The notes under the pieces were generated by a model. The model did not search any database. It saw only the letters and a program-made list of their open reading frames with translations, and had not been told where the DNA came from. A stretch of 64,000 nucleotides of DNA from Leptolyngbyaceae cyanobacterium (lineage in GTDB: Bacteria > Cyanobacteriota > Cyanobacteriia > Phormidesmidales > Phormidesmidaceae): the NCBI GenBank assembly GCA_965263355.1, contig CBDHHL010000056.1, forward strand, positions 64,001 through 128,000, written 5' to 3'. Of this stretch, positions 47,439-62,834 are shown piece by piece (within the stretch, counting starts at the first letter, position 1; each line of letters starts with the position of its first letter). The position numbers and the translations under genes were made by a program.

Positions 47439-48218
47439 TTGGGAACAAGTTCCCTGGCGGTGGTTACCTATCCAGGCACGTCTACAGTACCCGCACCTCA
47501 GCCACCACCAACCATCAATAATATATTTAATATTTCTGGTAGTACCCTGACGAATGTATCGGCTTCTGGCAACATCCAATATACCGAAGCCGCTAGCCCG
47601 TCAACTCTCTCGGTTGAGGTAAATGATATCAATCAGGCCACATATGGCAAGAAGAAAACGATCTTAATGCTTGCGGCAAACCCTAAAGATACCGCTCAGC
47701 TTCGTTTAGGGGCAGAATCACGGGAAATTTTAGCCGGGTTAGAACGCTCAAAACACCGAGATCAGTTTGAGTTAATCACTCGCTTTGCCCAACGTCCTGA
47801 TGATATGCGGCGCGCGCTGCTGGATATTAATCCAGATATTGTGCATTTTTCAGGCCATGGTGGTGGCTCCAATGGTCTGGTACTGGAAAATGACGCTGGT
47901 AAACTGCAGTTTGTCCCGACGGCTTCCCTAACCCGACTGTTCAATTTTTTTAGCAATACAATTGAGTGCGTTGTGCTGAATGCCTGTTACTCAGAAGAGC
48001 AGGCTACTGCTATCCATGAGCATATCAATTGTGTTGTAGGGATGAACCGAGCCGTGGGCGATCGCAGCGCCATCAAATTTGCCATCGGCTTTTACGATGC
48101 CCTTGGCGCAGGGCGCTTCTACGAAGATGCCTTTGAAATGGGCCTAATTGCCATTGATGTCGATCGCCTGAAAGGGTTAGATATTCCCCGCCTAAAATTG
48201 CGCGAACCAACGTTTTAA
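47439..48218 (+). CDS. CHAT domain protein, possibly 5'-truncated
   Basis: ILMLAANP, VHFSGHG, VVLNACYS and FYDAL; weak TTG start preceded by a linker-like segment. Confidence 0.8.
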   Translation: MGTSSLAVVTYPGTSTVPAPQPPPTINNIFNISGSTLTNVSASGNIQYTEAASPSTLSVEVNDINQATYGKKKTILMLAANPKDTAQLRLGAESREILAGLERSKHRDQFELITRFAQRPDDMRRALLDINPDIVHFSGHGGGSNGLVLENDAGKLQFVPTASLTRLFNFFSNTIECVVLNACYSEEQATAIHEHINCVVGMNRAVGDRSAIKFAIGFYDALGAGRFYEDAFEMGLIAIDVDRLKGLDIPRLKLREPTF

Positions 48219-48455
48219 TCAAACTGAGTTTTTAGAGAAATTCGTTTGAGGTTAAGTGTACTGTTAGGAGCAGGTGCTTTTATCCATTAGTTAAGAGTCT
48301 AGTTAAGAGTCAACCTATTGTTCAACGTTAAACTCCAGCTGTAAATGACTTTAAGATAATTTTAGATATGCTTAAATCTAAAATATTATGTTCTAAATTA
48401 TCCATACCTTTAACTGAAATCTATAGTGGAAAAGTCTATTCTTTAGCACTAATAA

Positions 48456-48947
48456 ATGATGGTTAGCAATGATTTATTACCGCAGACAATTAGTGGCTAT
48501 GAAATTGATCAATTAGACCTGAATATTATTAAACTTCTGCAACATAATGGACGCATTGCCTATAGCGATATTGCTCGTTCGATTGATGCCCCTGAGGCAA
48601 CAATTCGATATCGGGTTAAGCGGCTCATTGATGAAAAAATCATTTCTATTAGTGCCTTTATTAATACGGGCAAAGTTAAGTATGAAAATGTTGCTTACAT
48701 TGAGTTGGAAACTGAGCCTAATTTCTTAGACGATGATCTCAATGAGCTGGTAGTAATGGAAAATATTAGCTACGTAGCATCCGTCACGGGAGACTATGAT
48801 GTTATGTTGGAATATATCTACAAAGATAATGAGGATTTGCTAAATTTTATCAACACATTAAAGCAAAATCCTAACGTAAAACGTCTCAGCTCAAGAACAA
48901 TTCTGAAAATTCATAAGGCCCAGTATCCGGCTAGAGTTCAACCGTAA
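48456..48947 (+). CDS. Lrp/AsnC family transcriptional regulator
   Basis: IDQLDLNIIKLLQHNGRIAYSDIA HTH and VTGDYD. Confidence 0.92.
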   Translation: MMVSNDLLPQTISGYEIDQLDLNIIKLLQHNGRIAYSDIARSIDAPEATIRYRVKRLIDEKIISISAFINTGKVKYENVAYIELETEPNFLDDDLNELVVMENISYVASVTGDYDVMLEYIYKDNEDLLNFINTLKQNPNVKRLSSRTILKIHKAQYPARVQP

Positions 48948-49020
48948 ACCTCTTAAAAATAAATTTTGCAATTTTAATTTTATACTCTGCCCTCTTCGCA
49001 GGAAACCAGTCCAAAACATA

Positions 49021-49110
49021 TATAATCGCCCCCGCCGTAAACCCAACTTATGCAAGTAGAGATAACATAGTATGAGGGTTGTAGGGCGGCATCCCGCCAT
49101 GCCCAGGGGG
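49021..49110 (+). repeat. Dispersed ~90-bp REP-containing element, copy 1
   Basis: Shares TATAATCG.CCCCGCCGTA...GGGTTGTAGGGCGGCATCCCG...GCCCAGGGG with 63879-63971. Confidence 0.75.
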
Positions 49111-49223
49111 TTTGGGGAACTCGGAGGGACCCCAAGCAACATCTTGAACTTCCTTGCCAACCGCGCAGCGTCCCTACAAGATCACCTATTCGAATAAAAC
49201 TTACTGAATACGAAAGAAAAAAA

Positions 49224-50078
49224 TCAAGGCATTTTAGCCGTCTTTCCAATTACATCCAGTGGGTCTTCTCTTAATAACGTCTCCTGGGTATTAACATCCG
49301 CTTCAATTACATTTTCTAGATGACGCTGTAGGGCTAGAAAATCAGAATCGTAGCGATCGCAAAATCTATCCTCAGAAATATTCACCGTTTCAATAATCCG
49401 ACCCGGTCTATCCCCAATCACAATTAACTTTTGGCCCAACAAAATCGCCTCTTCCACATTGTGGGTCACCAGCACCATCGTCGTTGCCGTATCTTCCCAA
49501 ATAGACGACAAAAATTTCTGCAACCTGCGCCGTAGTTGAATATCTAAGGCAGAAAAGGGTTCATCTAATAACAGCACATCGGGTTGGACTGCAATGGATC
49601 GAGCAATGGATACCCGCTGTTTCATGCCCCCTGAAAGCTGATGGGGATAGGATTTCCGGGCATGGGAAAGGCCCACCTGTGCCAACACATCCCTAACTTT
49701 GGTGGCATAATGGATCTGTTTTTTGCCCCGGACCTTAAACCCAAAGCCAATATTTTGTTCAACTGTTAACCAGGGATACAGGGTATTTTCCTGGAACACC
49801 ATGCCAATTTTTGGGGTGATGCCCTTAAGGGGAACCCCATGGAATAGCACCTGACCCGCACTGGGATGGATAAATCCACCTAACAGTTTGAGTAAAGTGG
49901 ATTTTCCGCCGCCTGATTGTCCCAAAATGGTAACAAAATCTCCCTGGTTGACGTTCAGGTTAACGTTGGCTAAGACGGTTGTTTGGCTGCGACCGGATGA
50001 AAAATGTTTAGCGACATTCTGGCAGGTGAGGATGGCAGAGCTGGAAATGGGGGTTGGGGTGCGATCGCGAGACTCCAT
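49224..50078 (-). CDS. NitT/TauT-type ABC transporter ATP-binding protein
   Basis: GQSGGGKST, LSGGMKQR, LLLDEPFSALD and VTHN. Confidence 0.95.
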   Translation of the reverse strand: MESRDRTPTPISSSAILTCQNVAKHFSSGRSQTTVLANVNLNVNQGDFVTILGQSGGGKSTLLKLLGGFIHPSAGQVLFHGVPLKGITPKIGMVFQENTLYPWLTVEQNIGFGFKVRGKKQIHYATKVRDVLAQVGLSHARKSYPHQLSGGMKQRVSIARSIAVQPDVLLLDEPFSALDIQLRRRLQKFLSSIWEDTATTMVLVTHNVEEAILLGQKLIVIGDRPGRIIETVNISEDRFCDRYDSDFLALQRHLENVIEADVNTQETLLREDPLDVIGKTAKMP

Positions 50079-50129
50079 AGCTTATACCAAATTCGAATTC
50101 ATTAAACCCGATTAAAAATGGATAATCCT

Positions 50130-50156
50130 GTAGGGGCAATCCCTTGTGGTTGCCCT
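50130..50156 (+). repeat. GTAG-type REP-like hairpin between ABC genes
   Basis: GTAGGGGCAATCCCTTGTGGTTGCCCT. Confidence 0.55.
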
Positions 50157-50189
50157 TCAATACTGGGTGCCATCAGCCAGGATTTAGTA

Positions 50190-50999
50190 TTACACCTGCC
50201 ACCAGAAAAACTTTCGCTGAATCAACAACAGCAGTCGATCTACCGCAAATCCAGTAATCCCAATAATACAGATCCCCAACAAGATCAAATTACTATTAAA
50301 CAGATTTCGTCCAGTCATCACCACTGTACCCAGCCCATCTCGCAATCCAGTCATTTCTGCTGCCAGTACCGCCATCCAGGCCGCAATAAAATTTAACCGC
50401 AATAGGGTAAATACCCCTGGCAAAACCGCTGGCACGATCACCCATCGCCACCGATTAAAACTACCCCCTCCCAGATTTTGTGCTGTCATTAACAGTGGTT
50501 CAGGGATGCGTTTAATCTCCGCCACCGTAGCAATGGTCAAGGTAAAGAACACACCCATAAACACAATAAACACTGCCGTTAAGTTACTCACCCCAAAGAC
50601 AACCAGGGCCAATGGTACCCAGGCAATGGGGGCAATCGGTGCAATTAATCCTAATATGGGCAAGATAAAAAGCTCCGACCACTTCGAGAGACTGATTAAA
50701 AGACCACACACAATCGACCCAATAAAGGCCACTGTCATTCCCAGTAGCACACGAACCAACGTGACTGCCACCGATTGGTAAATCGAAGCTGCCTGGGAAC
50801 CCAGACCAATCTTAAAATCACTCTCAAATAAGACGGGCAAAAACTGAGATGGCGGTGGTAAAACCTGGGTAATCGGATTCTCTGGATTGCGACCAATGCT
50901 TTCCCAAAGTCCTACTAAAACAGCACAAGATAGCAGACCACATCCAATCGAAAGCAGCGATTGTCGCCAGACTTGTTGATCCCGAATACTGTGTTTCAT
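50190..50999 (-). CDS. NitT/TauT-type ABC transporter permease
   Basis: LPPPS, PIAPIAWVPL, EAA-like loop and AEMTG..GLG. Confidence 0.93.
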   Translation of the reverse strand: MKHSIRDQQVWRQSLLSIGCGLLSCAVLVGLWESIGRNPENPITQVLPPPSQFLPVLFESDFKIGLGSQAASIYQSVAVTLVRVLLGMTVAFIGSIVCGLLISLSKWSELFILPILGLIAPIAPIAWVPLALVVFGVSNLTAVFIVFMGVFFTLTIATVAEIKRIPEPLLMTAQNLGGGSFNRWRWVIVPAVLPGVFTLLRLNFIAAWMAVLAAEMTGLRDGLGTVVMTGRNLFNSNLILLGICIIGITGFAVDRLLLLIQRKFFWWQV

Positions 51000-51056
51000 T
51001 GGCCTAGGGCTTGTTAAAAAGTAAGCTCTGCGAAGTCATTTTTAAACAACCCCCTC

Positions 51057-52130
51057 CTACTCTAATGATTTGACCAAGGTCGTATCAAAAATATCCTTAG
51101 CCGGAACATCTGATTCGATGTACTTCAGTTCCACCATTTTATCGACCACAGTTTGTACAGCATCTAAGTCAGGCGTAAACGTAATCGGTGATGGCTGAGT
51201 TTCAAAGGCCGTTAACAATACCTCATCTTCAACCCGATAATAATTTCCATCCTTCAACAGTTCAATTGCTTTGGCTGGGTCAGTATTAATAATCTCAGCA
51301 GAACATTGCATCCCTTTGATGTAGGCTTTGACCACTTCTGGACGCTCACTGAGGGTTTTGTCTAATACACTCACTACGGTGTTTGGCGTGGTGGGAGACC
51401 AAACCTCGGCATTATCGGTTAAGACAGTTGCCTCACCGCTGGTAACAAACTGAGTAGTATAGGGCTTAATGTGACTGAGAATATCCACCTCGCCGACTCG
51501 GAAGGCGTCTACCATGGCCAACAGATCATCAAAGTAGACCATTTCAAAGGCGTCGGGCGAAATACCTGCCTCTTCAAAGGCATCCACCAAAATTAGTTCA
51601 AGGGTATCGCCTCGTAGGGTGGCGATTTTTAGTTTAGTATCTGGGTTTTCTGAGACAAATGCTACTAAATCTGATATTGATGCCACTCCATGCTCATTGT
51701 TAATGATTACCTGCATGACGCCCCAACCCCCAGCGGCGGAGACAGTCTTGATGGGGACACCACTATTCGCGGCAAAAAATGGCAAAGTAAAAGGATTGGT
51801 ACTAAAGTCAATGCTGCCACCAGCCAGGGCTGCATTGTTGTCACCAGGGTTTGTAAACGCAACTGTTTCAACGGCCAGACCATTGTCTTCAAAACAGCCT
51901 GACTCCACCCCCACAAACAAAGGAGCCATATCTAAAGCAACCAAGTGCCCCGCTTTGACAGGGGTTAACTCAGCTACTGGGGCTGCCTCTGCCTCTGCAA
52001 TCTCTGATGTCTCAGCTGCTGGAGATTCTGTTACATCATCTGTGGGACTAGATGAAGCACAGGAAATCCACAAAAGACTACCTGCAGATAAGACTATTAT
52101 CCGCTTTAACAATAGAAAAGTGGGATTCAT
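51057..52130 (-). CDS. NitT/TauT-type ABC substrate-binding lipoprotein
   Basis: Lipoprotein Cys (WISC), G.FEDNGL and AALAGGSIDF; first gene of the ABC operon. Confidence 0.9.
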   Translation of the reverse strand: MNPTFLLLKRIIVLSAGSLLWISCASSSPTDDVTESPAAETSEIAEAEAAPVAELTPVKAGHLVALDMAPLFVGVESGCFEDNGLAVETVAFTNPGDNNAALAGGSIDFSTNPFTLPFFAANSGVPIKTVSAAGGWGVMQVIINNEHGVASISDLVAFVSENPDTKLKIATLRGDTLELILVDAFEEAGISPDAFEMVYFDDLLAMVDAFRVGEVDILSHIKPYTTQFVTSGEATVLTDNAEVWSPTTPNTVVSVLDKTLSERPEVVKAYIKGMQCSAEIINTDPAKAIELLKDGNYYRVEDEVLLTAFETQPSPITFTPDLDAVQTVVDKMVELKYIESDVPAKDIFDTTLVKSLE

Positions 52131-52198
52131 ATGGTTACTCAGCCCCCAACGCTGCTCTTTAAACTTGGAAGAAAACGCTTACTGCTCACACAACTATG

Positions 52199-52241
52199 AG
52201 GGTAGGTGAGTCAATAGGTATTTTTTGTAACTGATGAAACA
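52199..52241 (-). promoter_or_regulatory. NtcA-type class II promoter of the ABC operon
   Basis: Minus strand TGTTTCATCAGTTACA (GTT-N8-TAC; TGT-N10-ACA), then exactly 22 nt to TACCCT (TAN3T). Confidence 0.65.
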
Positions 52242-52268
52242 ATCTCAGCAAAAATACAGCTACAAAAG

Positions 52269-52313
52269 TTAATCAATTCGCAAAAGTAGAACCATCAGCT
52301 ACGAATTGATTAA
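52269..52313. promoter_or_regulatory. 12-bp inverted repeat upstream of the NtcA-type site
   Basis: TTAATCAATTCG-N21-CGAATTGATTAA. Confidence 0.45.
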
Positions 52314-52426
52314 GTCTTGCTTTCTTTTTTATAGAATTGTTGACTCTAGCCCACGTCCAAGGTGTACCCTACAGGTTCTTTACGGAAAAATGACCATTCT
52401 GGACGTGGACAAAGGATATATCCTCA

Positions 52427-53098
52427 TCAAACTAACGTAGTCTCCAAGAGAGCAGACGAGTGTGCTACCCAACCCAGTACCCCTCCCTCTGATTGCAGGA
52501 TATGGACCGTGGCATCATGATCCCTGGCATCGAAAGCAGCACAGCAATCATCCAATAGCAGGCAGTAATACCCCAAATCACTAGCATGGCGATAGGTAGC
52601 TAAAACACAACATTGGGTGGTCACGCCACTAATCAAAAGGTGAGTGATATTATCAGCGTGTAATCGTTGATCAAGGCAGGTATTTACAAAGCAAGAGTGA
52701 GCCGGTTTATCGAGTTGTTCCTCTTCAGACACCGGTTGTAACTCATCAATAATGGCAGCCCCAAGCTCCCCTTGCACGAGAAACCGACCCATTTTGCCCG
52801 CCTGACCAATGGGTGATCCGGCATTGGCATAGCGGATTTTTTTGCTGGGTGATAAATCCGATAGGTCCGGCACATGGCTTTCTCGAGTAAAGATAACCTT
52901 AAGTCCGATTTGTCTGGCCCAGGCCACTAAGGATTGAACCGCAGGTATAATCGCGCGAACAGCTGTCATATCAAGCCCTAACTCACTACCATTGAACCCA
53001 TCAGGATGGCAAAAGTCATTTTGCATATCAATAACCAGTAAGGCTGTTTGGTCAAGCGGCAGATCGAATGAATGGGTATAGGTATTGACTACAACCAT
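52427..53098 (-). CDS. Isochorismatase-family cysteine hydrolase, biuret/guanylurea hydrolase-like
   Basis: Triad D24 (IDMQNDF), K131 (DKP) and C164 (TTQCCV); BiuH-like TRE.H.PDLSDL and GRFLV.GE; C-terminal SEGG.LGWV. Confidence 0.88.
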   Translation of the reverse strand: MVVVNTYTHSFDLPLDQTALLVIDMQNDFCHPDGFNGSELGLDMTAVRAIIPAVQSLVAWARQIGLKVIFTRESHVPDLSDLSPSKKIRYANAGSPIGQAGKMGRFLVQGELGAAIIDELQPVSEEEQLDKPAHSCFVNTCLDQRLHADNITHLLISGVTTQCCVLATYRHASDLGYYCLLLDDCCAAFDARDHDATVHILQSEGGVLGWVAHSSALLETTLV

Positions 53099-53325
53099 AA
53101 ATACCTCATGGGAACATCTCCAATGCTATTAGGTGATACTGTTATGCCTAAAACTGTTTTAATAAACAGCTCTTGAGATTTAATCTAATCCTGATAAGAT
53201 CGTTTTTAAGCCTAATCTATGCAAATAGCGTATCAAGTTTCACATTTTTCACATTTACACTTATTGTCACATTTATCGGATGTAGTCGCCGCCTACTCAT
53301 TTTTGAAAGTAATGGGATTAAAGCC

Positions 53326-53946
53326 ATGACATCGCATCATCATCGTCCTGAATCTGAAATCGCTCTGCGGGTTAAAGCTATTGAGTCGCTGTTGGTAGAG
53401 AAAGGAATTGTTGACCCAGCTGCCCTGGATGCCATTATTGATACCTATGAGCATAATGTGGGTCCCCATATCGGTGCTCAAATTGTTGCTAAGGCTTGGG
53501 TTGATCCTGAGTTTAAGCAACGACTTTTAGCTGATGGTACCAGTGCGATTTCAGAACTAGGTTTCACAGGGTTTTCTAGTGAACATATGGTAGTGGTGGA
53601 AAATACCTCGGCTGTACACAACTTGATTGTCTGTACTCTTTGTTCCTGTTATCCCTGGGCAATTTTAGGGCTACCTCCTACCTGGTACAAATCCTTTGCC
53701 TACCGATCCCGTGCGGTGATTGAACCCCGCAAGGTTTTGCAAGAGTTCGGTTTGGACATTCCTGAAGACGTTGAAGTGCGGGTATGGGACAGTAATGCAG
53801 ACTTACGTTATCTCGTTTTACCCGAACGACCTGCAGGAGCTGAGGAGTTGTCAGAAAAAGACCTGGCAGCCCTTGTTACCCGCAATGCCATGATTGGCAC
53901 AGCTAACGTTCAATCGCCCATTGTGTCTACCTCTATTGTTGCTTAG
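53326..53946 (+). CDS. nthA: Nitrile hydratase alpha subunit, cobalt type
   Basis: [10 protein letters not shown] metal motif (Thr/Tyr = Co type), GLPP.WYKS..YRSR and VWDS; ATG 53326 preferred over the TTG at 53173. Confidence 0.95.
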
Positions 53947-53957
53947 GAGCTATCGCC

Positions 53958-54263
53958 ATGAATGGTCCCCATGATTTGGGTGGTATGCATGGATTGGGTC
54001 CAATTCCCATTGAAGAGAACGAACCTGTGTTTCATAGCGAATGGGAAGCCCAGGTATTTGCCATGAGCTTTGCCACCTTTGTGAACTATTTTCCAGTGGA
54101 TGAAACTCGCCATGCGTCAGAACAAATGCCTCCTGGTGAATATTTAAGCTCCAGTTATTACGAACGTTGGCTCTATGCCCTAGAGCTTTTACTCACCAAG
54201 CATAATCTTGTTACCCCAGACGAAATCGAAGCCAGAATCGCTGAATTTGCCCAGGCAGAGTAA
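53958..54263 (+). CDS. nthB: Nitrile hydratase beta subunit, N-terminal half
   Basis: MNGPHDLGGMHGLGP, PVFH.EWE, RHA.E and SYYERW; AGGAG RBS; own stop codon. Confidence 0.88.
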   Translation: MNGPHDLGGMHGLGPIPIEENEPVFHSEWEAQVFAMSFATFVNYFPVDETRHASEQMPPGEYLSSSYYERWLYALELLLTKHNLVTPDEIEARIAEFAQAE

Positions 54264-54294
54264 CCTCTCATATCACTCCGTTTACCCCTACCCC

Positions 54295-54663
54295 ATGGCC
54301 ATCGAAACTCCTAACCAATGTATGACTGCCCAAGATGCCAAAACTCTTCTAGGCGAGGGGTTAAGCTGTCAGGCAGAAAGTGATTTACCTGCTCAGTTTC
54401 ATGTGGGGGACCTGGTCAGGGCAAAAGTTATGCACCCCAAGACCTATACGCGTTTACCCCGCTACATTCGAGGCAAAGTGGGAGAAATTGTCAAAGATCA
54501 TGGTACATATATTTTTCCGGACACCATGGGACAACGGCTATCCACAAAACCTCAACACGTCTACAGTGTGCGGTTTTCTGCCCAGGAGCTTTGGGGACAG
54601 GACGTCTCACCCAATGACTCCCTCTATATTGATTTATTTGATGACCATTTAGAATCTCCTTAG
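54295..54663 (+). CDS. nthB: Nitrile hydratase beta subunit, C-terminal (SH3-like) half
   Basis: F.VGD.V, TRLPRYIRGK.G, Y.V.F...ELWG and IDLFD.HLE; ATG 54295 in a different frame from the N-half. Confidence 0.85.
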   Translation: MAIETPNQCMTAQDAKTLLGEGLSCQAESDLPAQFHVGDLVRAKVMHPKTYTRLPRYIRGKVGEIVKDHGTYIFPDTMGQRLSTKPQHVYSVRFSAQELWGQDVSPNDSLYIDLFDDHLESP

Positions 54664-54676
54664 AGCTTACGGATTT

Positions 54677-55042
54677 ATGTCTCTACCACAAAACAGAAAT
54701 TCTCCTCTGTCTGCCTCTGCTCAAAAAGATAATGAACCCGTCTTTCAGGCACCTTGGGAAGCCAGGGCATTTGCCATTGTCAATCAACTCGCTAATGCTC
54801 TGGAATACAGTTGGTCTGAGTGGACTGATCAATTTGTAGAGGAAATCTCAGTTGCTGAGAATGATCCCACCGATACAAGCTCGTATTACGAACGTTGGGT
54901 GCGAACTTGCGAAAAGCTGTTAATTGCTAAAGGCATTCTGAATCCATTGGCTATTGATCAGCGCATCAAAGAATTGCGAGTTGAACGTGAAACCAATGTA
55001 GAACATGAGCATCAGGAGCCAGAAGCTAGTAAGACCCTATAG
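54677..55042 (+). CDS. Nitrile hydratase accessory protein (P14K/NhlE-like)
   Basis: EPVFQAPWEARAFAI, W.EW and YYERW..E; His-containing tail. Confidence 0.88.
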   Translation: MSLPQNRNSPLSASAQKDNEPVFQAPWEARAFAIVNQLANALEYSWSEWTDQFVEEISVAENDPTDTSSYYERWVRTCEKLLIAKGILNPLAIDQRIKELRVERETNVEHEHQEPEASKTL

Positions 55043-55099
55043 TCTGACTTCTAATTAAGAAAAATCCTACTTTGAGTTGACACCCACCCAGAGGTTATT

Positions 55100-55954
55100 T
55101 TGGAACTTCTAGTTTTGCGTTCATGGTGTACCGGCCCAGCCAATTTAGAAGCGCTTGTTCAGCAGACCTTGGATGACGGCTTTGACGGGATTGAGGCACC
55201 AATTCCCGAAGACATTCAACAAAGGCAGCTCCTTCGTCGTCTCTTGCAGGAGCACGGGCTGGTTTTTATTGCGGAAGCAACCACGGGGATCGACCCAGAT
55301 AATACCAAGGATTGGTGGATTCCTCACCCTGACCGTAGCATTTGCGATCATCTGGCTGATTTGCAGTGGGCGGTGGACCATGCTAATGAAATCGGGGCCA
55401 TGTTTGTCTCTACGATGTGTGGCTATGATGCCTGGTCCTGGCAGCAAAATGTGGACTTTTTTGGCCGTGCTTTAGAACTAGAGCAAACATCCGGTACTAC
55501 CATTAGTTTTGAAACCCATCGTAGCCGCTCACTTTACAATCCCTGGATTACCCGAGACCTGCTGAACCAGTTTCCTGCGATGAAGCTCACCTGTGACTTT
55601 AGCCATTGGTGTGTTGTCTGTGAACGCTTGCTTGACACGGAGTGGTCAATCTTAGAACTTTGTGCTGAAAGAGCCCAACATATTCAATGTCGTGTGGGTT
55701 ATTCTCAACATGCCCAGGTTGCAGATCCCCGTGCGCCTGAATCCCAGGAGGCATTAGAGGCCCATGAGCGTTGGTGGCGTTTGATTTGGGAGAAACAACA
55801 GCAACGGGGTATGGCTAAGACAACGATGATGCCGGAATTTCTCTACGATGGCTATATGCAAACTTTGCCCTATACGGGAATGCCGGTGGCCGATGTGTGG
55901 GAGATTACCTGTTGGATGGCTGAGCGGCAACGGCAACACTTCTCTAAGCAGTAG
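55100..55954 (+). CDS. Sugar-phosphate isomerase/epimerase-like TIM-barrel metalloprotein
   Basis: GFDGIE, FETHR, TCDFSHW, H.RVG and PEF; TTG start with GAGG RBS. Confidence 0.85.
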   Translation: MELLVLRSWCTGPANLEALVQQTLDDGFDGIEAPIPEDIQQRQLLRRLLQEHGLVFIAEATTGIDPDNTKDWWIPHPDRSICDHLADLQWAVDHANEIGAMFVSTMCGYDAWSWQQNVDFFGRALELEQTSGTTISFETHRSRSLYNPWITRDLLNQFPAMKLTCDFSHWCVVCERLLDTEWSILELCAERAQHIQCRVGYSQHAQVADPRAPESQEALEAHERWWRLIWEKQQQRGMAKTTMMPEFLYDGYMQTLPYTGMPVADVWEITCWMAERQRQHFSKQ

Positions 55955-55985
55955 CAACGTTACGTTTATGGTAAATAAAAAGGCT

Positions 55986-56020
55986 TAGTGCAGCGTCAAC
56001 GTTAAAAATTAGGATTCTGT
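55986..56020 (+). mobile_element. Solo IS630-type terminal sequence
   Basis: TAGTGCAGCGTCAACGTTAAAAATTAGGATTCTGT, near-identical to the reverse complement of 14485-14520. Confidence 0.75.
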
Positions 56021-56552
56021 ATGGATGCAGCGTAAGGGGTAATAGGAGAATTACATTACGAGGGTGCGATCGCTATTTTGTCAGACGGATATGACAGTGC
56101 CACCCTTGCTAAAACTTTGGAAGTTAGGACACAATGATTGCTATTCGGGGAGCATTGATGGTGTAAATGCTGTTTCTCTCTTTCAGCGGACAATGCAGCA
56201 GCTACCTCAGGTATTATTGCATTGCCAGTGAGGGGGCAAACCTATGTGTTGCAAAAAACACCTGTATTAATTTTGACAAAAATAACCGTATCGTTGATCG
56301 GAATCAAGCGCAAAATTCAGCCCCTAAAAAATATCTAACCTGACCGGAATTTCCCAACGGTAAGCGGATATTAATAAAGGTGTACTCTCTAAATTTGTCC
56401 ACTAAGAGCCTTAGTCCAGGATCGTAGCCTGCAAATGTAAAGTTGGCTACGGATCTACCCCTGCTCCATGTCCAGGACCACAGGTTTCTTTAGACGAAGC
56501 AACCGCTTTAAACTGGGACATGGTTATGTTCTGCAAATTGTGTCCAGATTAA

Positions 56553-58040
56553 ATGCTTGACTCAACATACCATCAACTCACCAATAACGAGATAGCTCAG
56601 CTTGGAGAACGCTATGAGCTACTAGAGGCCATTGGACATGGCGGTATGAGCATTGTATTTCGTGGGCGCGATCAGGTACTCAACCGAGCAGTTGCCCTCA
56701 AGCTATGCAAACCCAATATCGATGTTTCGCGTCTGCATCGAGAAGCCATCGCCATGGCGGGCATTCAGTCTCGCCACGTAGTCACCGTCCATGACTTTTT
56801 AAAGCTAAGTCAGGACCGGGGCGTACTGGTGATGGATTGGATTGAAGGTAAAGATCTGGCCACGATTATGGGCGATCAATCCTGCTCCCTAAAGGATGAT
56901 GTCGTGCGGCAGTGGATGCGGGATGTCTGTATTGGCATGATCGATGCTGAGTCTAAAGGCGTTATTCACCGAGATCTTAAGCCATCTAACATCATTATCG
57001 ATGCCCATCAGCGTGCTTTGGTGATGGATTTTGGCATTGCCACTGGCAAAACGATGAATCAGCTGACGTTGGATGGTCAAGTGATTGGCACTCCACTATA
57101 CATGGCTCCAGAACAGGCTGAAGACCCAAGCAAGGTCGATACCAGAGCTGATGTGTATAGCTTTGGTGCAACGTTCTACCATGCCATTGTGCGACAGCCG
57201 CCGTTTGACGCTGAAACGCCCTGGTCCGTTGTGTGGAAGCATAAGACAGAACCCTTAATTCCACCCAAATCCCTCAATCCATCCATTAGTAGTGTATTGA
57301 ATGATTGTATTGAACGGTGTTTAGCCAAAGATCCAGCCGATCGGTTTTCTAGTTTTTCCCAAATAAATGAAGTCCTGAGTTCGTCTACTGTGCGTCCTTG
57401 GGAACACACTATTGACGAAACCCTCGCTAACTATTTGGGCGTTTTCAGGGTTCATCGCAAACAATTTTTAAGCCCTGATCTAGCCGAAATCGATCGACCG
57501 ACAATTTTTGATTTTCCCAATAGGCGTCGCCTCAAGATTCTCTTTGGTGATTTAACTGAACAAGGGGTAGACGCCCTTGTGAGTTCAGATGATGCCATGT
57601 TAACTATGAGCAGCGGTGTGTCCGCTGCCCTAGCCCAAAAAGCCGGTGGAGCATTCCGCGAAGAGGCCCAACGATTTACCCCCGCGCGGGCCGGCAGAGT
57701 TGTTGTTACCCCTGCCGGAGATTTGCCATCAAGGTTTGTATTTCATGGTATTTCCATTGGCATAGATGGAGAATCTCAACAGTTTCCCACCCGCGATGTC
57801 ATTGCCGAAATTGTTGACAGCTGTTTCTACCAGGCAGAAACCCTATCTATTCAGTCAATTGCGTTTCCCCTGCTGGGTACAGGAAACGCTGGGTTTCCCC
57901 GTGGGGTTGCCTTAGACACCATGTTTCGCATCATTGCCCACAGACTGCTCAGACGCATTACCCCCATCAAAGAAGTAAGAATTGTCCTTTGGCCAGAGGA
58001 CACCTCACCAGATGACGACAATACTCTGATTTTGAACTAA
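56553..58040 (+). CDS. Hanks-type Ser/Thr kinase fused to a C-terminal macrodomain
   Basis: IGHGGM, VALK, HRDLKPSN, DFG and GTPLYMAPE; then GDLT..DALVSSDD, GVSAAL and SIAFPLLGTGNAGF. Confidence 0.9.
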   Translation: MLDSTYHQLTNNEIAQLGERYELLEAIGHGGMSIVFRGRDQVLNRAVALKLCKPNIDVSRLHREAIAMAGIQSRHVVTVHDFLKLSQDRGVLVMDWIEGKDLATIMGDQSCSLKDDVVRQWMRDVCIGMIDAESKGVIHRDLKPSNIIIDAHQRALVMDFGIATGKTMNQLTLDGQVIGTPLYMAPEQAEDPSKVDTRADVYSFGATFYHAIVRQPPFDAETPWSVVWKHKTEPLIPPKSLNPSISSVLNDCIERCLAKDPADRFSSFSQINEVLSSSTVRPWEHTIDETLANYLGVFRVHRKQFLSPDLAEIDRPTIFDFPNRRRLKILFGDLTEQGVDALVSSDDAMLTMSSGVSAALAQKAGGAFREEAQRFTPARAGRVVVTPAGDLPSRFVFHGISIGIDGESQQFPTRDVIAEIVDSCFYQAETLSIQSIAFPLLGTGNAGFPRGVALDTMFRIIAHRLLRRITPIKEVRIVLWPEDTSPDDDNTLILN

Positions 58041-58164
58041 AAGCATCATTACATTAAACTAAAGCGCAGTATTCAGTCGATTAGCATAACCAATCATCCC
58101 CAAATAGCCCTTTGCCCTAACGACTGGTCTGCCACAGTACCTTCAAAGCTAACTGCACCTATTT

Positions 58165-58782
58165 CTACCAAATTTTTGTCATCTTGAGTTCAAACATTGG
58201 CATTTCAGGTTCGCAGCTAACAGATTCAGGGTTATCTAAAATTTCTGTTGCTTGTTCAGGTCGATAAATGTAAACTTTGCGACTCTTCCTATCGATCAAC
58301 AATCCTAGCCGCACACCATTAGCAATATATTCTTCCATCTTTTCCTGCAAGCTAACCAACGTATCGCTACTGGACCGTAATTCCACAACAAAATCAGGAG
58401 CAATCGGTGCAAAGGATGCCTGCTGTTCAGGTGTCAACGCATGCCAGTGGTCAGCCAAAATCCAGGCTGCATCTGGAGAGCGCGTGGCCCCATTGGGTAA
58501 GGTAAACCCTGAGCTAGAATCAAAGGCTTCTCCAGTTCCATCAGCTTCAGACCAAATATATAGCTGCCCAAAGATTCTGCCATTGCGGTTGCCAGTATCC
58601 GAAAAGGCTGGAGGCATAACGATTATCTCTCCGTTTGCATTCCGCTCGATTCGTAAATCAGGGTTTGTCTGACAAAATTCATAGAACTGCTGGTTACTCA
58701 TCTTCTCTAGGGTGGTTAGCGAAGATAAGTTAATTGGCACCGCTGCCTGTACAGATTTAACTAGCAGGTTCGTCATACCCAA
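58165..58782 (-). CDS. Uma2 family endonuclease
   Basis: DSSSGFTLPNGA.RSPDA, PDFVVELRS and KMEEY..NG. Confidence 0.92.
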   Translation of the reverse strand: MGMTNLLVKSVQAAVPINLSSLTTLEKMSNQQFYEFCQTNPDLRIERNANGEIIVMPPAFSDTGNRNGRIFGQLYIWSEADGTGEAFDSSSGFTLPNGATRSPDAAWILADHWHALTPEQQASFAPIAPDFVVELRSSSDTLVSLQEKMEEYIANGVRLGLLIDRKSRKVYIYRPEQATEILDNPESVSCEPEMPMFELKMTKIW

Positions 58783-58823
58783 CTCTATCCAAGAAGGTTT
58801 GCATAATTATAGCTAGTGCAGTG

Positions 58824-59519
58824 TCAAAGCTTAATTTTAGGGTAAACGGAGGCTAGCTTACAGCGAGCATCATCGACCTGCATCTGCCAGTCAACTCCCC
58901 GTTGCCTGTTGTTGATATCGTTCGACCAAGCTGTCGTTTCAGCCCGTAGCGTATCGATGTCTTCAAAGCGTCTACCATCAATGCACTGTCGAGTCATTGC
59001 ACTCACATCATTTTCTGCGATGTTGAGCCAACTGCCATGCTTCGGGGTATAACAAAATTCGATTCGCTGCACCAATTTTCGCGCTCGTTCAGGCTCGAAT
59101 GCTTCGTAAAAAGCCCCTTTGGTGTGTGTATTGAGATTGTCACACACCAATCGTACTTTCTCGCAATCGGCATAGCGGTTTTCCAGTATGTCAGCCACTT
59201 CAAGCGCCCAATCCACTTTGGTGCGACTCGGACGTACGCTCACTTGCCGCCAACCGGCTAACGGCTCAGTAAACATGAAAATACTCGCGGTCCCGGCCCG
59301 TTCATACTCATAGTCCACCCGTTTGCCATGGTTAGCCGTGGCCGGAAGCGGGGGACGACTCTCTCGTTGAAATTGAACGGGTTGTTCATCCATGCAAATC
59401 GTCGGACGGGTTGGGTCGTAAGGCTGGGCATAGACATCAAGCACCGCTTCCATGTGAGCCACAAATTCAGCATCGGTCTCAGGGGGAATCACCCAGTACT
59501 CTATCTTGCGATTGGTCAT
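58824..59519 (-). CDS. IS630 transposase OrfB (DDE domain)
   Basis: CMDE, DYEYER.G, CDNLNTH and TPKHGSWLNIAE. Confidence 0.92.
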   Translation of the reverse strand: MTNRKIEYWVIPPETDAEFVAHMEAVLDVYAQPYDPTRPTICMDEQPVQFQRESRPPLPATANHGKRVDYEYERAGTASIFMFTEPLAGWRQVSVRPSRTKVDWALEVADILENRYADCEKVRLVCDNLNTHTKGAFYEAFEPERARKLVQRIEFCYTPKHGSWLNIAENDVSAMTRQCIDGRRFEDIDTLRAETTAWSNDINNRQRGVDWQMQVDDARCKLASVYPKIKL

Positions 59520-59959
59520 GCCATTTTTTTCAGAGTCTGTCGCACCGTCTCATGGCTGACCGTGTCAACCAGACCCAATTCAACCACCTTACGAGCTAGC
59601 AAACGCAATGACCAATTGGCATACCCGGCGGGAGGGGCTCCTAATCGCAGGGCAATCACCTGGGCTTCCTGCTCGCCATCAAGGAGCTTATCCGTGGGGG
59701 GACGGCGTCGCTTCGCACCATTAAGAGTTACCGCAAACCCTTGCTCAACCAAGCGGCGGCGAATATTCTCCACGGTCTTTGTTCGACAGTCAAACGCATC
59801 GGCGATCTCCTGGTCAGTCCAGTTCGATCCATCGGCATCCGCTTTCAGTAAAATCTGAGCGCGACGCACTTTCTGGCTGCTGCCCTTCAGCTTTTTGATC
59901 ACCGCTTGTAACTGATGGCGCTCATCGGGAGTTAGACGGACAATATACTTTTTCTGCAT
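59516..59959 (-). CDS. IS630 transposase OrfA (HTH); A7 slippery run at the junction
   Basis: RRAQILLKAD, WSLRLLA and SHETVRQTLKK; CTGAAAAAAATGGCATGA overlaps OrfB in the -1 frame. Confidence 0.9.
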   Translation of the reverse strand: MQKKYIVRLTPDERHQLQAVIKKLKGSSQKVRRAQILLKADADGSNWTDQEIADAFDCRTKTVENIRRRLVEQGFAVTLNGAKRRRPPTDKLLDGEQEAQVIALRLGAPPAGYANWSLRLLARKVVELGLVDTVSHETVRQTLKKMA

Positions 59960-60036
59960 AGGATTCCGGTACGCTGCATAGAGCTTACAGCAACACTCTC
60001 AATAACCCTAATTTTTAGTCTTGACGCTGCACTAGT

Positions 60037-60444
60037 ATGGATGGCTTTGCAGTGCTGGAGCGGGTGCTCTCTGCCGATGCCGATGTGTTGTTCTGTGGTC
60101 ATACCCATGTTCCCTATGTGCGAGAGTTAGAGGATGCTAAACTGTCGGTCACGGTGAAACAACCTGCTCGTTCTGAAAACCCCCAACAGTTTCAGGTAGC
60201 GTTGAAACGCATTATCAATGCGGGCTCTGTGGGCGAACCTCGCCACGGTCGGCCCAATGCTACTTATGTTCTCTACGACACCGAGACAACCCAGGTGACT
60301 CTACGGGAAGTTGCCTATAACTACACTAAGACCTGTCTGGCCATCCTGGAAAAGGGATTACCTTCTATTTTTGCATGGCGGTTAGCACGGGGCATGGAGT
60401 TTGCAGAACGGGCGGACGATCCCACCCATGTTTGCGAGCGATAG
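60037..60444 (+). pseudogene. Metallophosphoesterase, C-terminal fragment cut by IS630
   Basis: FCGHTH and NAGSVGEPR are present, but the N-terminal metal motifs are absent; begins 2 nt after the IS end. Confidence 0.8.
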
Positions 60445-60469
60445 ATATTGAAAATGGAGAGATAACCCG

Positions 60470-61197
60470 ATGAAGTGGGCGATCTTAAGCGGCATTGAAG
60501 GCAATCTGACGGCCTACGAGGCAGGATATACGGCGGCAGGCGGTGAGCGATCTGCTATTATATCTGGGGGATGTGGTCGGCCTCCAGGGAGATAATGAGG
60601 CGGTGATTCAACGGCTGCAGTCTCCTCAGCCTGACGAGTTAGCACCTCAGGTATGTGTGGGTTGGTGGGAGGAGCAGTGTTTTAGTTTGCACGGGGTGAG
60701 CGGTCTGCAGGATGCGCCGGAGCTAATGGAGAAAGTTGGCGGTGATGGGGTAAAAGCCCTTTGGGAATCGGTGTCACGGGAGTCGGTGCGGTGGTTGCGA
60801 TCGCAGCACTTTGGCTTCCATGAACTCGACTGTTTACTGATCCATGGCAGCACCGTCAGCTATGCCGATGAACTTACGTCTGACACCCCGGCGATTGAGT
60901 TGTGCGATCGCTTAGTTCGCGCCGATGCTAATTATCTCTTTTGTGGTCGCTCTGGTCTCACCTTTGAATGCTGGGTCACCCCAGTGGAGCTACGTTCGAC
61001 TGCGACCACTCTGCCACCTCCTTATTTGAGCCCCTCAGGATTATGGCAAAACATCTCGCCAAGTGATTGGTGTTGGCTCGGTGGGTCGTACTCCTGGAAA
61101 GTCTACCTACGCGCTATTCAGTCCTGGTAATGGTCAACTCTCTTTTAGAACTGTGAGCTATGGCCAGGTAAAAGGGTTTGGAGCAACGAAACAATAA
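60470..61197 (+). pseudogene. Second metallophosphoesterase-like gene with frameshifts
   Basis: MKWAILSGIEGNLTAYEA (60470) is out of frame with LGDVVG...IHGS...FCGRSG; the final GVGSVGRTPG...KGFG segment is in another frame. Confidence 0.72.
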
Positions 61198-61199
61198 CA

Positions 61200-61817
61200 C
61201 TACACCTGTTGCAGCTCTTTCAAGGATTTTGACAGCACGTTTCCAGCCGATTTTGCAAAGACAACGGTCAACAATAACCCAACTGCCAGATCAGGCAAAA
61301 TTGAATGGGTGAGCAATACTAAGATTGCCGCCACCAGGACCGACGTGTTGGCAATAATGTCATTCCGAGAACACAGCCACACCGATGACATATTTAGATT
61401 ATCATTACGATGCCGCGTCAACAGCAACAAACACACCAGGTTAGCCAGCAGCGCCAATACACCCACCGCGCCCATGATAGCCCCTTCGGGACTGGCCCCT
61501 GCAAATAGCTGATAGGTAGCCCTAGCAAATACAGCAATAGCAAACAAAAACATAATCAGGCCCTTAAGCAATGCCGCCCCCGCCTGAGCTTTAGCGCTTT
61601 TATGAATCACATACAAACTACTGGCATACACCAGGGCATCCCCTAGCATATCCAGCGAGTCCCCAGTTAATGACAGCGAAGCCGCTCGAATACCTGCTCC
61701 AAATTCGACCACAAACATCACAGCATTGATTAATAGCACCGACCAAAGAACCTTTGCCTGTCGTTCTTTGAGCTTAGACACTTCACAAGCCTTGGCCTGA
61801 CAGCAATGATCAGCCAT
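61200..61817 (-). CDS. CDF-family cation efflux transporter (short form)
   Basis: MADHCC N-terminus, DSLDMLGDA and SVWLCSRND; about 6 TM. Confidence 0.88.
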   Translation of the reverse strand: MADHCCQAKACEVSKLKERQAKVLWSVLLINAVMFVVEFGAGIRAASLSLTGDSLDMLGDALVYASSLYVIHKSAKAQAGAALLKGLIMFLFAIAVFARATYQLFAGASPEGAIMGAVGVLALLANLVCLLLLTRHRNDNLNMSSVWLCSRNDIIANTSVLVAAILVLLTHSILPDLAVGLLLTVVFAKSAGNVLSKSLKELQQV

Positions 61818-61830
61818 ATCGCCCCCTATA

Positions 61831-61983
61831 TTCAAACAGTCAAACGAGTATTAGAACGTTTACTCAAACAGCTACTTCAATATTCAAGCCAGTATTAGAA
61901 TACTTACTCAGTCACTCAAACATTCAAGCTAATATTAGAACGTTATCACACACAAGAGTTTCATTCAAACCTTTATTAGAATG
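61831..61983. promoter_or_regulatory. Four tandem ArsR/SmtB(CadC)-type operator-like repeats
   Basis: TCAA(A/G)CNNNTATTAGAA x4, with TATTAGAA at 61849, 61893, 61933 and 61974. Confidence 0.7.
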
Positions 61984-62088
61984 ACCTGGATGACCGTGCT
62001 GAAGCTAGCAGGTTGTTGCGCTAAAGGTAGTTAGAAACCTCAATCAGATTCTGGTCGGGGTCTCGGAAGTATAAGAACGGAGGTATAA

Positions 62089-62466
62089 CTATTCGACCAG
62101 TTGCCTTAGTGCATAGCAAAGGATGTCAGCAACCCGTGGATCTTTTAGGGAGTAGTAGGCCAATTTACCGTCGTTGCGATACTTTAAGATACTGAGGTCA
62201 CGGAGCTTTCGCAGGTGATGGGAGGCGGTTGCAACCTTGATTTTCAAAAGGGAAGCCACATCACAGACGCATAGCTCCTCACCATTGCTTAGGGCATACA
62301 ATATCTTTAGCCGAGACCGATCGGCCAGGGCTCCAAACATGATCTGGGCAGATTCCAGCAGGTCATCGCCGGGAAGCACCTGGCCGATTTGGTGAACTAG
62401 CTCTTCGTTGAAGCAACGGACTTGGCAGACATCACTAGATTTGGTCACAGATTTTGCAAGGTTCAT
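62089..62466 (-). CDS. ArsR/SmtB metal-sensing repressor (CadC-like)
   Basis: N-terminal CQVRC, ALADRSRLKIL, ELCVCD and ASHHLRKL. Confidence 0.92.
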   Translation of the reverse strand: MNLAKSVTKSSDVCQVRCFNEELVHQIGQVLPGDDLLESAQIMFGALADRSRLKILYALSNGEELCVCDVASLLKIKVATASHHLRKLRDLSILKYRNDGKLAYYSLKDPRVADILCYALRQLVE

Positions 62467-62568
62467 CAGATGCTATATGTCCATGCTATGACTCTATTAT
62501 GGGCGGCCCTCCAATCTCCATCGTCTCTCAAACGTTAATAAAGGGTAACGACTCAATGTTTTGGCAGC

Positions 62569-62587
62569 AAGAATGATTATCATTCTT
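62569..62587. promoter_or_regulatory. Zur/Fur-type box upstream of the COG0523 gene
   Basis: Perfect 9-1-9 palindrome AAGAATGAT-T-ATCATTCTT containing AATGATTATCA. Confidence 0.7.
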
Positions 62588-62834
62588 ATGCAATTATAAC
62601 CAGGTAACCAGGCAACGGTCCCGGATAAAAGCGGACCAGGCACTACCCCAGTCTAAAGCTGAAATGTAGGCACTGTCAGAACTCCTTGGCATCCATGCCG
62701 ATCATCTGTCCGGTTCGCTGGGGCTGTACAAAGACTATGGCGCTGAGGTGGGTGCGATCGCGCACGCGTTGACTTGCCAGTTCGCACTTACCCACGTTCA
62801 AAGATAGGCAAACACCCTTATAAGGAGACGATTC

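Follow-up and report, generated by a model that had tools for sequence, protein, structure and literature searches.

Which nitrogen compound would a cyanobacterium handle with a nitrile hydratase (NHase), a relative of biuret hydrolase and an ATP-binding cassette (ABC) importer encoded side by side? The question is raised by a locus in a 64,000-nucleotide (nt) stretch of DNA from a Leptolyngbyaceae cyanobacterium (contig CBDHHL010000056.1, positions 64,001 to 128,000; below, the window), which is part of a cyanobacterial chromosome and carries, for example, a phycobilisome core-membrane linker gene at 9355-12312. A first-pass annotation of the letters alone had read ten genes of this locus as a system that imports a nitrogen-rich N-cyano compound, hydrates it and releases ammonia from the resulting ureide under nitrogen control. 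All ten open reading frames (ORFs) were found where that annotation had placed them, with families that agree in Pfam and NCBIfam (Table 1). The amidase-signature amidase and the aldoxime dehydratase that it had reported as missing were likewise without a Pfam match among the 54 window ORFs scanned.

We suggest the following answer. A NitT/TauT-type ABC transporter, whose operon would be driven by an NtcA-type (nitrogen-starvation) promoter, would import a small, polar, nitrogen-rich nitrile. A three-polypeptide cobalt NHase, composed of an α subunit and of the N- and C-terminal halves of β, would hydrate the nitrile to the amide. From this product, ammonia would be set free by a cysteine hydrolase of the isochorismatase family that is encoded divergently, with the transporter and all three enzymes serving one substrate chain. 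In this general form, with nitrile import, hydration, ammonia release, an importer under nitrogen control and the substrate left unspecified, the model is in our view moderately probable, and the gene linkage and the promoter motif described below support it well.

Relatives were collected by scanning for NthA in one genome per species and taking the 80 best loci, of which 17 are cyanobacterial (L001-L017; Leptolyngbya, Nodosilinea, Halomicronema, Phormidesmis, Elainella, Vasconcelosia and metagenome-assembled genomes) and 63 come from Acidobacteria, Proteobacteria and others. Their neighborhoods were compared by tblastn with the ten window proteins and by ORF clustering. The rarity of the genes in the phylum was estimated in 401 sampled cyanobacterial genomes, and this sample supplied a further locus, L082 (genome G269), in which the whole island was found. 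The window, L001-L017 and L082 form the set of 19 split-NHase loci referred to throughout. Nine of the ten genes, namely those for the Lrp regulator, the three importer components, the hydrolase, NthA, the two β halves and the accessory protein, constitute an island conserved in Leptolyngbya-like cyanobacteria. An ortholog of the hydrolase (74-89% identity) adjoins NthA in 13 of the 17 cyanobacterial loci and in 15 of the 19 split-NHase loci overall; the binding-protein gene of the importer is present in 14/17 and 16/19, respectively, and the Lrp regulator ortholog in 14/17 and also in L082. The accessory gene follows the β C-half in the cyanobacterial loci, and identities to the relatives amount to 63-90% for the ATPase, 78-94% for the permease and 67-87% for the binding protein. 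At none of the 63 non-cyanobacterial NHase loci did we find the hydrolase, the binding protein or the Lrp regulator.

The arrangement is thus far beyond chance and recurs in related cyanobacterial genomes. Indeed, the synteny of NHase, BiuH-like hydrolase, ABC importer and Lrp regulator across cyanobacterial loci bears out the grouping made by the first-pass annotation, save for the TIM-barrel gene that it had counted in: this gene is present in 0 of the 80 related loci and 0 of 4 further loci, and we have dropped it from the system. Also as the annotation had held, an NHase is atypical for a cyanobacterium, the α subunit being found in 6 and hydrolase matches at E 1e-70 or better in 5 of the 401 sampled genomes; the accessible text of PMC4509649 and PMC8400943 describes NHase as uncommon in cyanobacteria. 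In the open literature, subscription papers not covered, we came across no account of a gene cluster that joins an NHase to a BiuH-like or isochorismatase-family hydrolase, and the accessible part of PMC12625717 names biuret hydrolase and nitrile hydratase genes separately.

The hydrolase gene and nthA are divergent, with only 80-346 nt between them, at 14 of 14 loci measured. L012 and L014 are without an ortholog of the window hydrolase; in both, the place right next to the same hydratase and importer is taken by a different hydrolase of the isochorismatase family (201-205 residues). These two proteins share 75% identity with each other and about 27% with the window protein. Some isochorismatase-family hydrolase therefore stands beside the split hydratase in 17 of the 19 loci, by way of two non-orthologous members of the family, and because of this double association we suggest that the hydrolase acts as the amidase partner of the hydratase; we regard this as the strongest argument for a functional tie. 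The sequence of L007 ends just past the hydrolase, so that the presence of an importer there cannot be judged.

The identity of the hydratase follows from family models. NthA scored 306.1 bits against the NCBIfam NHase α equivalog TIGR01323 (cut-off 249.85) and 187.5 bits against the thiocyanate hydrolase (SCNase) γ equivalog TIGR03887, with which it aligns; the latter score lies under the cut-off of 291.45 and rules out an SCNase. The accessory protein reached 66 bits against TIGR03889 (cut-off 46). The best PDB matches of NthA were all of the Co type (entries named cobalt-containing NHase), with an identical stretch of 10 residues, and its metal-binding Cys cluster, VCTLCSC, is one that we take to be of the cobalt type under the Co/Fe rule. 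For NthA we prefer the start codon ATG 53326 over TTG 53173, and for the β C-half ATG 54295 over TTG 54208, the TTG codons being those of the longest ORFs; in both cases the relatives align from residue 1.

Both β domains were found, but on two genes. The N-half aligns with residues 1-93 of Pseudomonas putida Co-NHase β, the C-half with residues 105/125-224 of Co-NHase β chains and also with the separate, 126-residue α subunit of SCNase. The break sits between the two Pfam domains of β, at the same boundary in all 19 cyanobacterial loci. In L001-L017 the N-half frame stops after ~98-105 codons (L015, a partial match, was traced over 70 codons only) and the C-half starts 2-218 nt after this stop, mostly in another frame; in L082, 10 nt separate the two halves, which are again in different frames. 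β is instead fused, as one gene of ~219 codons, in 58 of the 63 non-cyanobacterial loci, the other five being frameshifts elsewhere or contig ends. The split is inherited, and its identical position in all cyanobacterial loci rules out a sequencing error or a pseudogene; the split nthB of the first-pass annotation is accordingly confirmed as two half-genes in different frames, inherited across 19 of 19 loci. In L015 (Leptolyngbya sp. BL-A-14; 10621-11812), an opposite-strand ORF of 271 residues separates α from β, only residues 31-99 of the β N-half were matched, and hydrolase and importer are missing; the hydratase of this strain looks disrupted.

Acidobacteria and Proteobacteria supply the nearest relatives of the window NthA, which are two-subunit NHases of the ordinary kind, and because α is 65-74% identical to such enzymes, the split probably arose separately within this cyanobacterial lineage. 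Clade-fixed substitutions accompany it in each polypeptide, for example Q84S, G85S and Y80L in α, R64S, M65S and W45F in the β N-half, and H51Y and W115F in the β C-half (15-17 of 17 loci versus at least 70% of 57 relatives). Three-polypeptide enzymes are known in the NHase family, since the α subunit of SCNase is separate and toyocamycin NHase has three subunits (accessible part of PMC12648386); these enzymes resemble the island enzyme in having the β function on two polypeptides.

Compared with the NHase-amidase operons of Rhodococcus and Pseudomonas, which lead from the nitrile via the amide to acid and ammonia, the island has in common the Co-type α, the β domains and the accessory activator, while the likeness in a CobW-type GTPase and a HupE/UreJ-type membrane protein sits in a second NHase set of the relatives (see below). 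The island differs by a β in two genes and by an isochorismatase-family partner in place of an amidase-signature enzyme, and it adds the NitT/TauT importer, the Lrp regulator and the NtcA-type promoter motif. A cyanobacterial NHase induced by nitrogen limitation is encoded by the nthE-nthA-nthB cluster of Arthrospira/Limnospira PCC 8005, in which, according to the accessible text, nthA and nthB are up under nitrogen limitation at both the mRNA and the protein level (PMC4509649; cluster also in PMC8400943). By its description, nthB is one undivided gene in this cluster and neither a hydrolase nor an importer is linked to it, and its gene content resembles the second, unsplit type of the relatives.

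The hydrolase belongs to the group of BiuH and TrtA. Its best PDB matches were TrtA (6xix/6xj4) and BiuH (6xjm/6azo), at E ~1e-50 and ~45-48% identity, and it shares their fold family. Against the NCBIfam BiuH model NF050097 it scored 208.4 bits, under the cut-off of 370. Residue roles were taken from the accessible part of PMC7948467, with an offset of +3 in the numbering of the alignment chain, after which all 14 named residues checked agree. According to that source, BiuH has the catalytic triad Asp36-Lys142-Cys175 and binds its substrate with Lys145 and Gln215; replacing these by alanine abolishes the activity or removes >90% of it. The triad is kept in the window hydrolase (D24, K131, C164) and is invariant in 125 of 125 family members. 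In contrast, the substrate-binding Lys (BiuH K145/TrtA K132) is replaced by His134 and the Gln contributed by the partner subunit (BiuH Q215/TrtA Q202) by Glu204, and Leu42 and Gln162 stand at the positions of BiuH Y53/TrtA N41 and BiuH D173/TrtA E160. Across the 125 family members, position 134 is H in 91, Q in 33 and Y in 1, never K, and position 204 is E in 123. Of the TrtA pattern F35, N41, K132, E160 and Q202, only F35 agrees with the window pattern (F35, L42, H134, Q162, E204).

The replaced Lys and Gln, together with the score under the NF050097 cut-off, rule out that the protein is BiuH or TrtA. Of the BiuH/GuuH-type hydrolase of the first-pass annotation, what stands is the group and its triad; the substrate-binding Lys and Gln of BiuH and TrtA are not there. 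The island-bearing genome of Leptolyngbya sp. PCC 6406 (G001) offers an internal comparison, as it encodes elsewhere a BiuH equivalog (419.7 bits versus 370) and, as a third gene, a TrtA-patterned paralog. Because both paralogs keep K and Q, whereas the island hydrolase does not, the latter is, judged by these residues, a separate branch of the BiuH/TrtA group. The paralogs lie at L086:8031-8714 and L087:8356-9021, the BiuH equivalog adjoining a nucleoside-type ABC ATPase, and the PCC 6406 genome has no allophanate hydrolase over the family cut-off. A tree of the hydrolases recovered the BiuH pair, the TrtA pair and the cyanobacterial family with weakly supported deep branches; its rows Rhiz_L095b, G001 RutB-like and Rhiz_L095a are long and unreliable.

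Biuret and triuret hydrolases grip the distal part of the substrate with the Lys and Gln that are here His (or Gln) and Glu, which makes biuret and triuret improbable as the amide. More likely, its distal part is cationic or donates hydrogen bonds, as in guanylurea or an amino amide. The cyanourea-to-biuret branch of the first-pass annotation is thus disfavored, because the hydrolase is without the two biuret-binding residues and an island genome has a BiuH equivalog of its own. The Rhizobium and Enterobacter plasmid loci compared here have an allophanate hydrolase next to the hydrolase, unlike the island; none was found inside it.

A third reference point is plasmid pMET-2, whose validated guanylurea hydrolase is, in the accessible text of PMC9800807, a cysteine hydrolase beside a deaminase; the guanylurea-hydrolase features used here are read from this one validated sequence and are not an established definition. 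The enzyme is 46% identical to the island hydrolase and, like it, has Glu at the position of BiuH Q215 and no Lys at that of K145; it differs by Tyr at 134 (His in the island) and Asp at 162 (Gln in the island), and the tree places it outside the cyanobacterial family. Its locus (L081:4534-8242) comprises an SsuA-like binding protein, a nucleoside-type deaminase, a permease and an ATPase, adjoined by a LysR regulator and IS66 elements. Compared with the island, binding protein and permease are just 21% and 27% identical, and the neighboring enzyme is the deaminase, not a hydratase. Hydrolases of a sister branch, 55-62% identical to that of the window, likewise adjoin an NMT1-type ABC importer in genomes G299, G295 and G052 (L083:8540-13220, L084:9955-14273 and L085:9946-16035); a metallo-β-lactamase-fold gene occurs in two of these three modules and often a fatty-acid-desaturase-like gene, and there is no hydratase. 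The combination of an importer, a first enzyme and this kind of hydrolase thus seems to recur with an interchangeable first enzyme, a hydratase here and a deaminase on pMET-2.

The importer has the NitT/TauT layout, a single operon encoding a binding protein of the NMT1/SsuA type together with one permease and one ATPase. Its best NCBIfam models overall were of the taurine, nitrate and sulfonate types, none over its cut-off. The best matches of the ATPase were SaoA, taurine and nitrate ATPases, every one under cut-off, and the binding protein reached 103 bits against TIGR01728 (cut-off 163). The binding protein gave weak PDB matches only, to NrtC/CmpA-type domains, and its protein-cluster matches were unnamed NMT1 clusters.

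NtcA-activated promoters carry a GTA-N8-TAC-like box ~22 nt upstream of a TAN3T -10 box. A strict search for GTA-N8-TAC found this box before the binding-protein gene in 2 of 13 loci; the conserved site emerged from the alignment and was then formulated as TGT-N10-ACA. The resulting composite motif, TGT-N10-ACA followed after 21 nt by TAN3T, is present in 13/13 aligned loci and 3/3 further ones, that is, in all 16 loci with a binding-protein gene. Most loci have T or G as its third base; L008 and L082 have A. In the window the motif lies on the minus strand, the -10 box TACCCT ending 68 nt before the start codon of the binding protein, and the composite motif occurs only 7 times on both strands of the 64 kb. 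The motif has the architecture of an NtcA-activated promoter, and binding of NtcA is predicted on this basis.

Other regulatory elements were sparse. A generic sigma-70 and terminator scan gave counts not above those of shuffles, and known RNAs, riboswitches included, were absent at gathering score from the whole window, with one chance-level match (E 1.5) in 48000-56500. Between the hydrolase stop codon and the NtcA-type box there is an 18-nt inverted repeat (52263-52280/52302-52319) whose arms are 89% complementary and spaced 21 nt apart, and the relatives have one of different letters in the same place; either a terminator hairpin for the hydrolase gene or a site for a regulator is conceivable. 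In Elainella saxicola, a second NtcA-type composite motif (TGTGTCGATCGCTACA, 21 nt, TATGAT; L012:9553-9568, minus strand) precedes a CobW paralog that directly precedes NthA, which hints that metal delivery to the hydratase may also be nitrogen-controlled in this species. The Lrp/AsnC protein is likely the specific regulator of the island and may sense the substrate or the product.

Table 1. Features of the island and its surroundings in the window
Feature	Position	Strand	Basis or detail
Lrp/AsnC-family transcriptional regulator	48456-48947	+	Pfam HTH_AsnC-type + AsnC_trans_reg
ABC importer ATPase, NitT/TauT type	49224-50078	-	Pfam ABC_tran (PF00005)
ABC importer permease	50190-50999	-	Pfam BPD_transp_1 (PF00528)
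Periplasmic substrate-binding protein, NMT1/SsuA family	51057-52130	-	Pfam NMT1_2 + NMT1 (PF13379/PF09084)
NtcA-type promoter motif before the importer operon	52199-52241	-	TGTTTCATCAGTTACA, 21 nt, TACCCT
Isochorismatase-family cysteine hydrolase, BiuH/TrtA/GuuH group	52427-53098	-	Pfam Isochorismatase
NHase α (NthA), cobalt type	53326-53946	+	TIGR01323 above cut-off
NHase β N-half, own gene	53958-54263	+	Pfam NHase_beta_N (PF21006), residues 1-98
NHase β C-half, own gene, other frame	54295-54663	+	Pfam NHase_beta_C (PF02211)
NHase accessory (activator) protein	54677-55042	+	TIGR03889 above cut-off
Xylose-isomerase-like TIM barrel	55100-55954	+	family search
CobW/COG0523 GTPase	62835-63815	+	Pfam cobW + CobW_C

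In most relatives, a second, unsplit NHase set lies on the other side of the Lrp gene (L016:547-4925; also L001, L004-L006, L008-L010, L012-L014, L017 and L082). It consists of genes for a CobW-type GTPase, a DUF1097 membrane protein, β (248 residues), α (~55% identical to the island α), an accessory protein and a HupE/UreJ-type protein. The CobW protein of the window is 67% identical to that of L016, where, as in other relatives, the CobW gene stands at the head of the second set. In the window, ~7.8 kb lie between this gene and the island; only 185 nt follow it before the window ends, and a second set beyond that point would be out of view. The intervening stretch (55100-62800) is absent from the relatives and looks like an insertion or rearrangement. 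Besides the TIM barrel, a Ser/Thr kinase-macro domain fusion (56553-58040) and an IS630-like transposase split over two ORFs (58824-59959) are encoded there, as are a Uma2 nuclease-like protein, a cation-efflux protein (61200-61835) and an ArsR regulator (62089-62466); metallophosphoesterase fragments occur as well.

Several observations weigh against a chain of import, hydration and hydrolysis under nitrogen control. The ligand of the binding protein is not readable from its sequence, and in the sequence covered, neither a hydrolase nor an importer accompanies the split hydratase of L010. Lrp/AsnC regulators usually sense amino acids, which is more in line with an amino nitrile than with an N-cyano substrate. 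The nitrogen control that the annotation had assigned to the whole system is borne out by the motif before the importer operon but not by the divergent region between hydrolase and NthA, where no NtcA-type motif was found, strict (0 of 14 loci) or composite; hydrolase and NthA may depend on the Lrp-type regulator instead of NtcA. Moreover, the hydrolase occurs with an NMT1-type ABC importer and without a hydratase in G299, G295, G052 and pMET-2, and it could act directly on an imported amide. Hydrolase and importer might then be a self-contained uptake module for an amide or ureide, with the hydratases of the island and of the second set as independent neighbors acting on other nitriles, and the restriction of the NtcA-type motif to the importer operon would agree with this. 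Such independence would have to be reconciled with the short divergent region kept at every locus measured, and it is hard to see, without a functional tie, why L012 and L014 should substitute a different isochorismatase-family hydrolase beside the same hydratase and importer. In addition, the more widespread second NHase type (CobW-β-α-accessory-HupE) occurs alone, without such a hydrolase alongside, in G016, G293 and G179. We consider independent neighbors rather improbable.

If the hydratase does feed the hydrolase, the substrate might be an N-cyano compound, as the first-pass annotation had it: the hydratase would make a terminal ureide for the hydrolase to cleave, in the surviving version from cyanoguanidine via guanylurea to guanidine, CO2 and ammonia. 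The hydration step of this proposal is sound, because NHases, mostly of the Co type, are reported in the accessible part of PMC13243292 to convert sulfoxaflor's cyanamide group into a urea by hydration. The closest characterized hydrolases (TrtA, BiuH and the pMET-2 enzyme) all cleave terminal ureides, and the pMET-2 enzyme shares both the Glu and the missing Lys and is likewise encoded inside a NitT/TauT-type ABC operon. However, 46% identity to the guanylurea hydrolase is no higher than that to TrtA and BiuH, the tree sets the cyanobacterial family apart (with weak deep support), the two binding proteins are only distantly alike, and the biuret branch conflicts with the residues and the separate equivalog described above. 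In the genomes of five island-bearing relatives, neither allophanate hydrolase (TIGR02713) nor a urea/guanidine carboxylase reached its cut-off (0/5 each), other amidase-signature proteins being present; arginase-family genes, considered as candidates for a guanidine hydrolase, number 2-3 per genome in 5/5, and the three scanned, at or just under cut-off, resemble agmatinases and are indistinguishable from them. The island is also old enough to be common to several genera, and we know of no natural cyanoguanidine source for benthic cyanobacteria. We rate the N-cyano reading as unlikely. A bolder version, in which an old, nitrogen-regulated pathway would import a natural N-cyano or guanidino nitrile, convert it by the three-subunit Co-NHase to a guanylurea-like ureide and cleave this by a new, guanylurea-hydrolase-like branch, strikes us as quite speculative and its truth as distinctly doubtful.

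An ordinary amino nitrile of cyanide chemistry would make the island a device for detoxification or salvage, not for exotic nitrogen-rich scavenging; examples are β-cyanoalanine, via asparagine to aspartate and ammonia, and aminoacetonitrile, via glycinamide to glycine and ammonia. The Lrp/AsnC family of the regulator, with its mostly amino-acid effectors, speaks for this, the exchange of Gln for Glu204 would favor an amide that bears an ammonium group, and the isochorismatase family includes carboxamide hydrolases such as nicotinamidase. Yet NitT/TauT-type binding proteins are not usual amino-acid carriers, the nearest characterized hydrolases are all ureide hydrolases, and neither β-cyanoalanine synthase nor another cyanide-related gene is conserved in the island. 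We hold an amino nitrile to be very unlikely. We thus retain the general model of nitrile import, hydration and ammonia release with its substrate unspecified.

New here are the inherited β split, the isochorismatase-family partner in 17 of 19 loci, the NtcA-type motif in 16 of 16, the hydrolase residues that match neither BiuH nor TrtA, and the second hydratase set beside the island in relatives. The natural substrates of nitrile hydratases are mostly unknown, and the island presents a defined, testable unit: a transporter with a nitrogen-starvation-type motif, a naturally split Co hydratase and, instead of the usual amidase, a partner from the biuret/triuret/guanylurea group. Leptolyngbya sp. 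PCC 6406 is a cultured carrier of the island, which makes bench work feasible. The split β is a natural experiment on how enzymes of the NHase family become three-subunit. With the substrate named, cyanobacterial physiology would gain a further nitrogen source and a new branch of isochorismatase-like hydrolases a function, and enzymes for pollutants of the N-cyano or guanylurea type could result. Should a natural N-cyano pathway prove true, cyanoguanidine/guanylurea chemistry, now known only from fertilizer additives and metformin breakdown, would gain a natural counterpart and a substrate to find.

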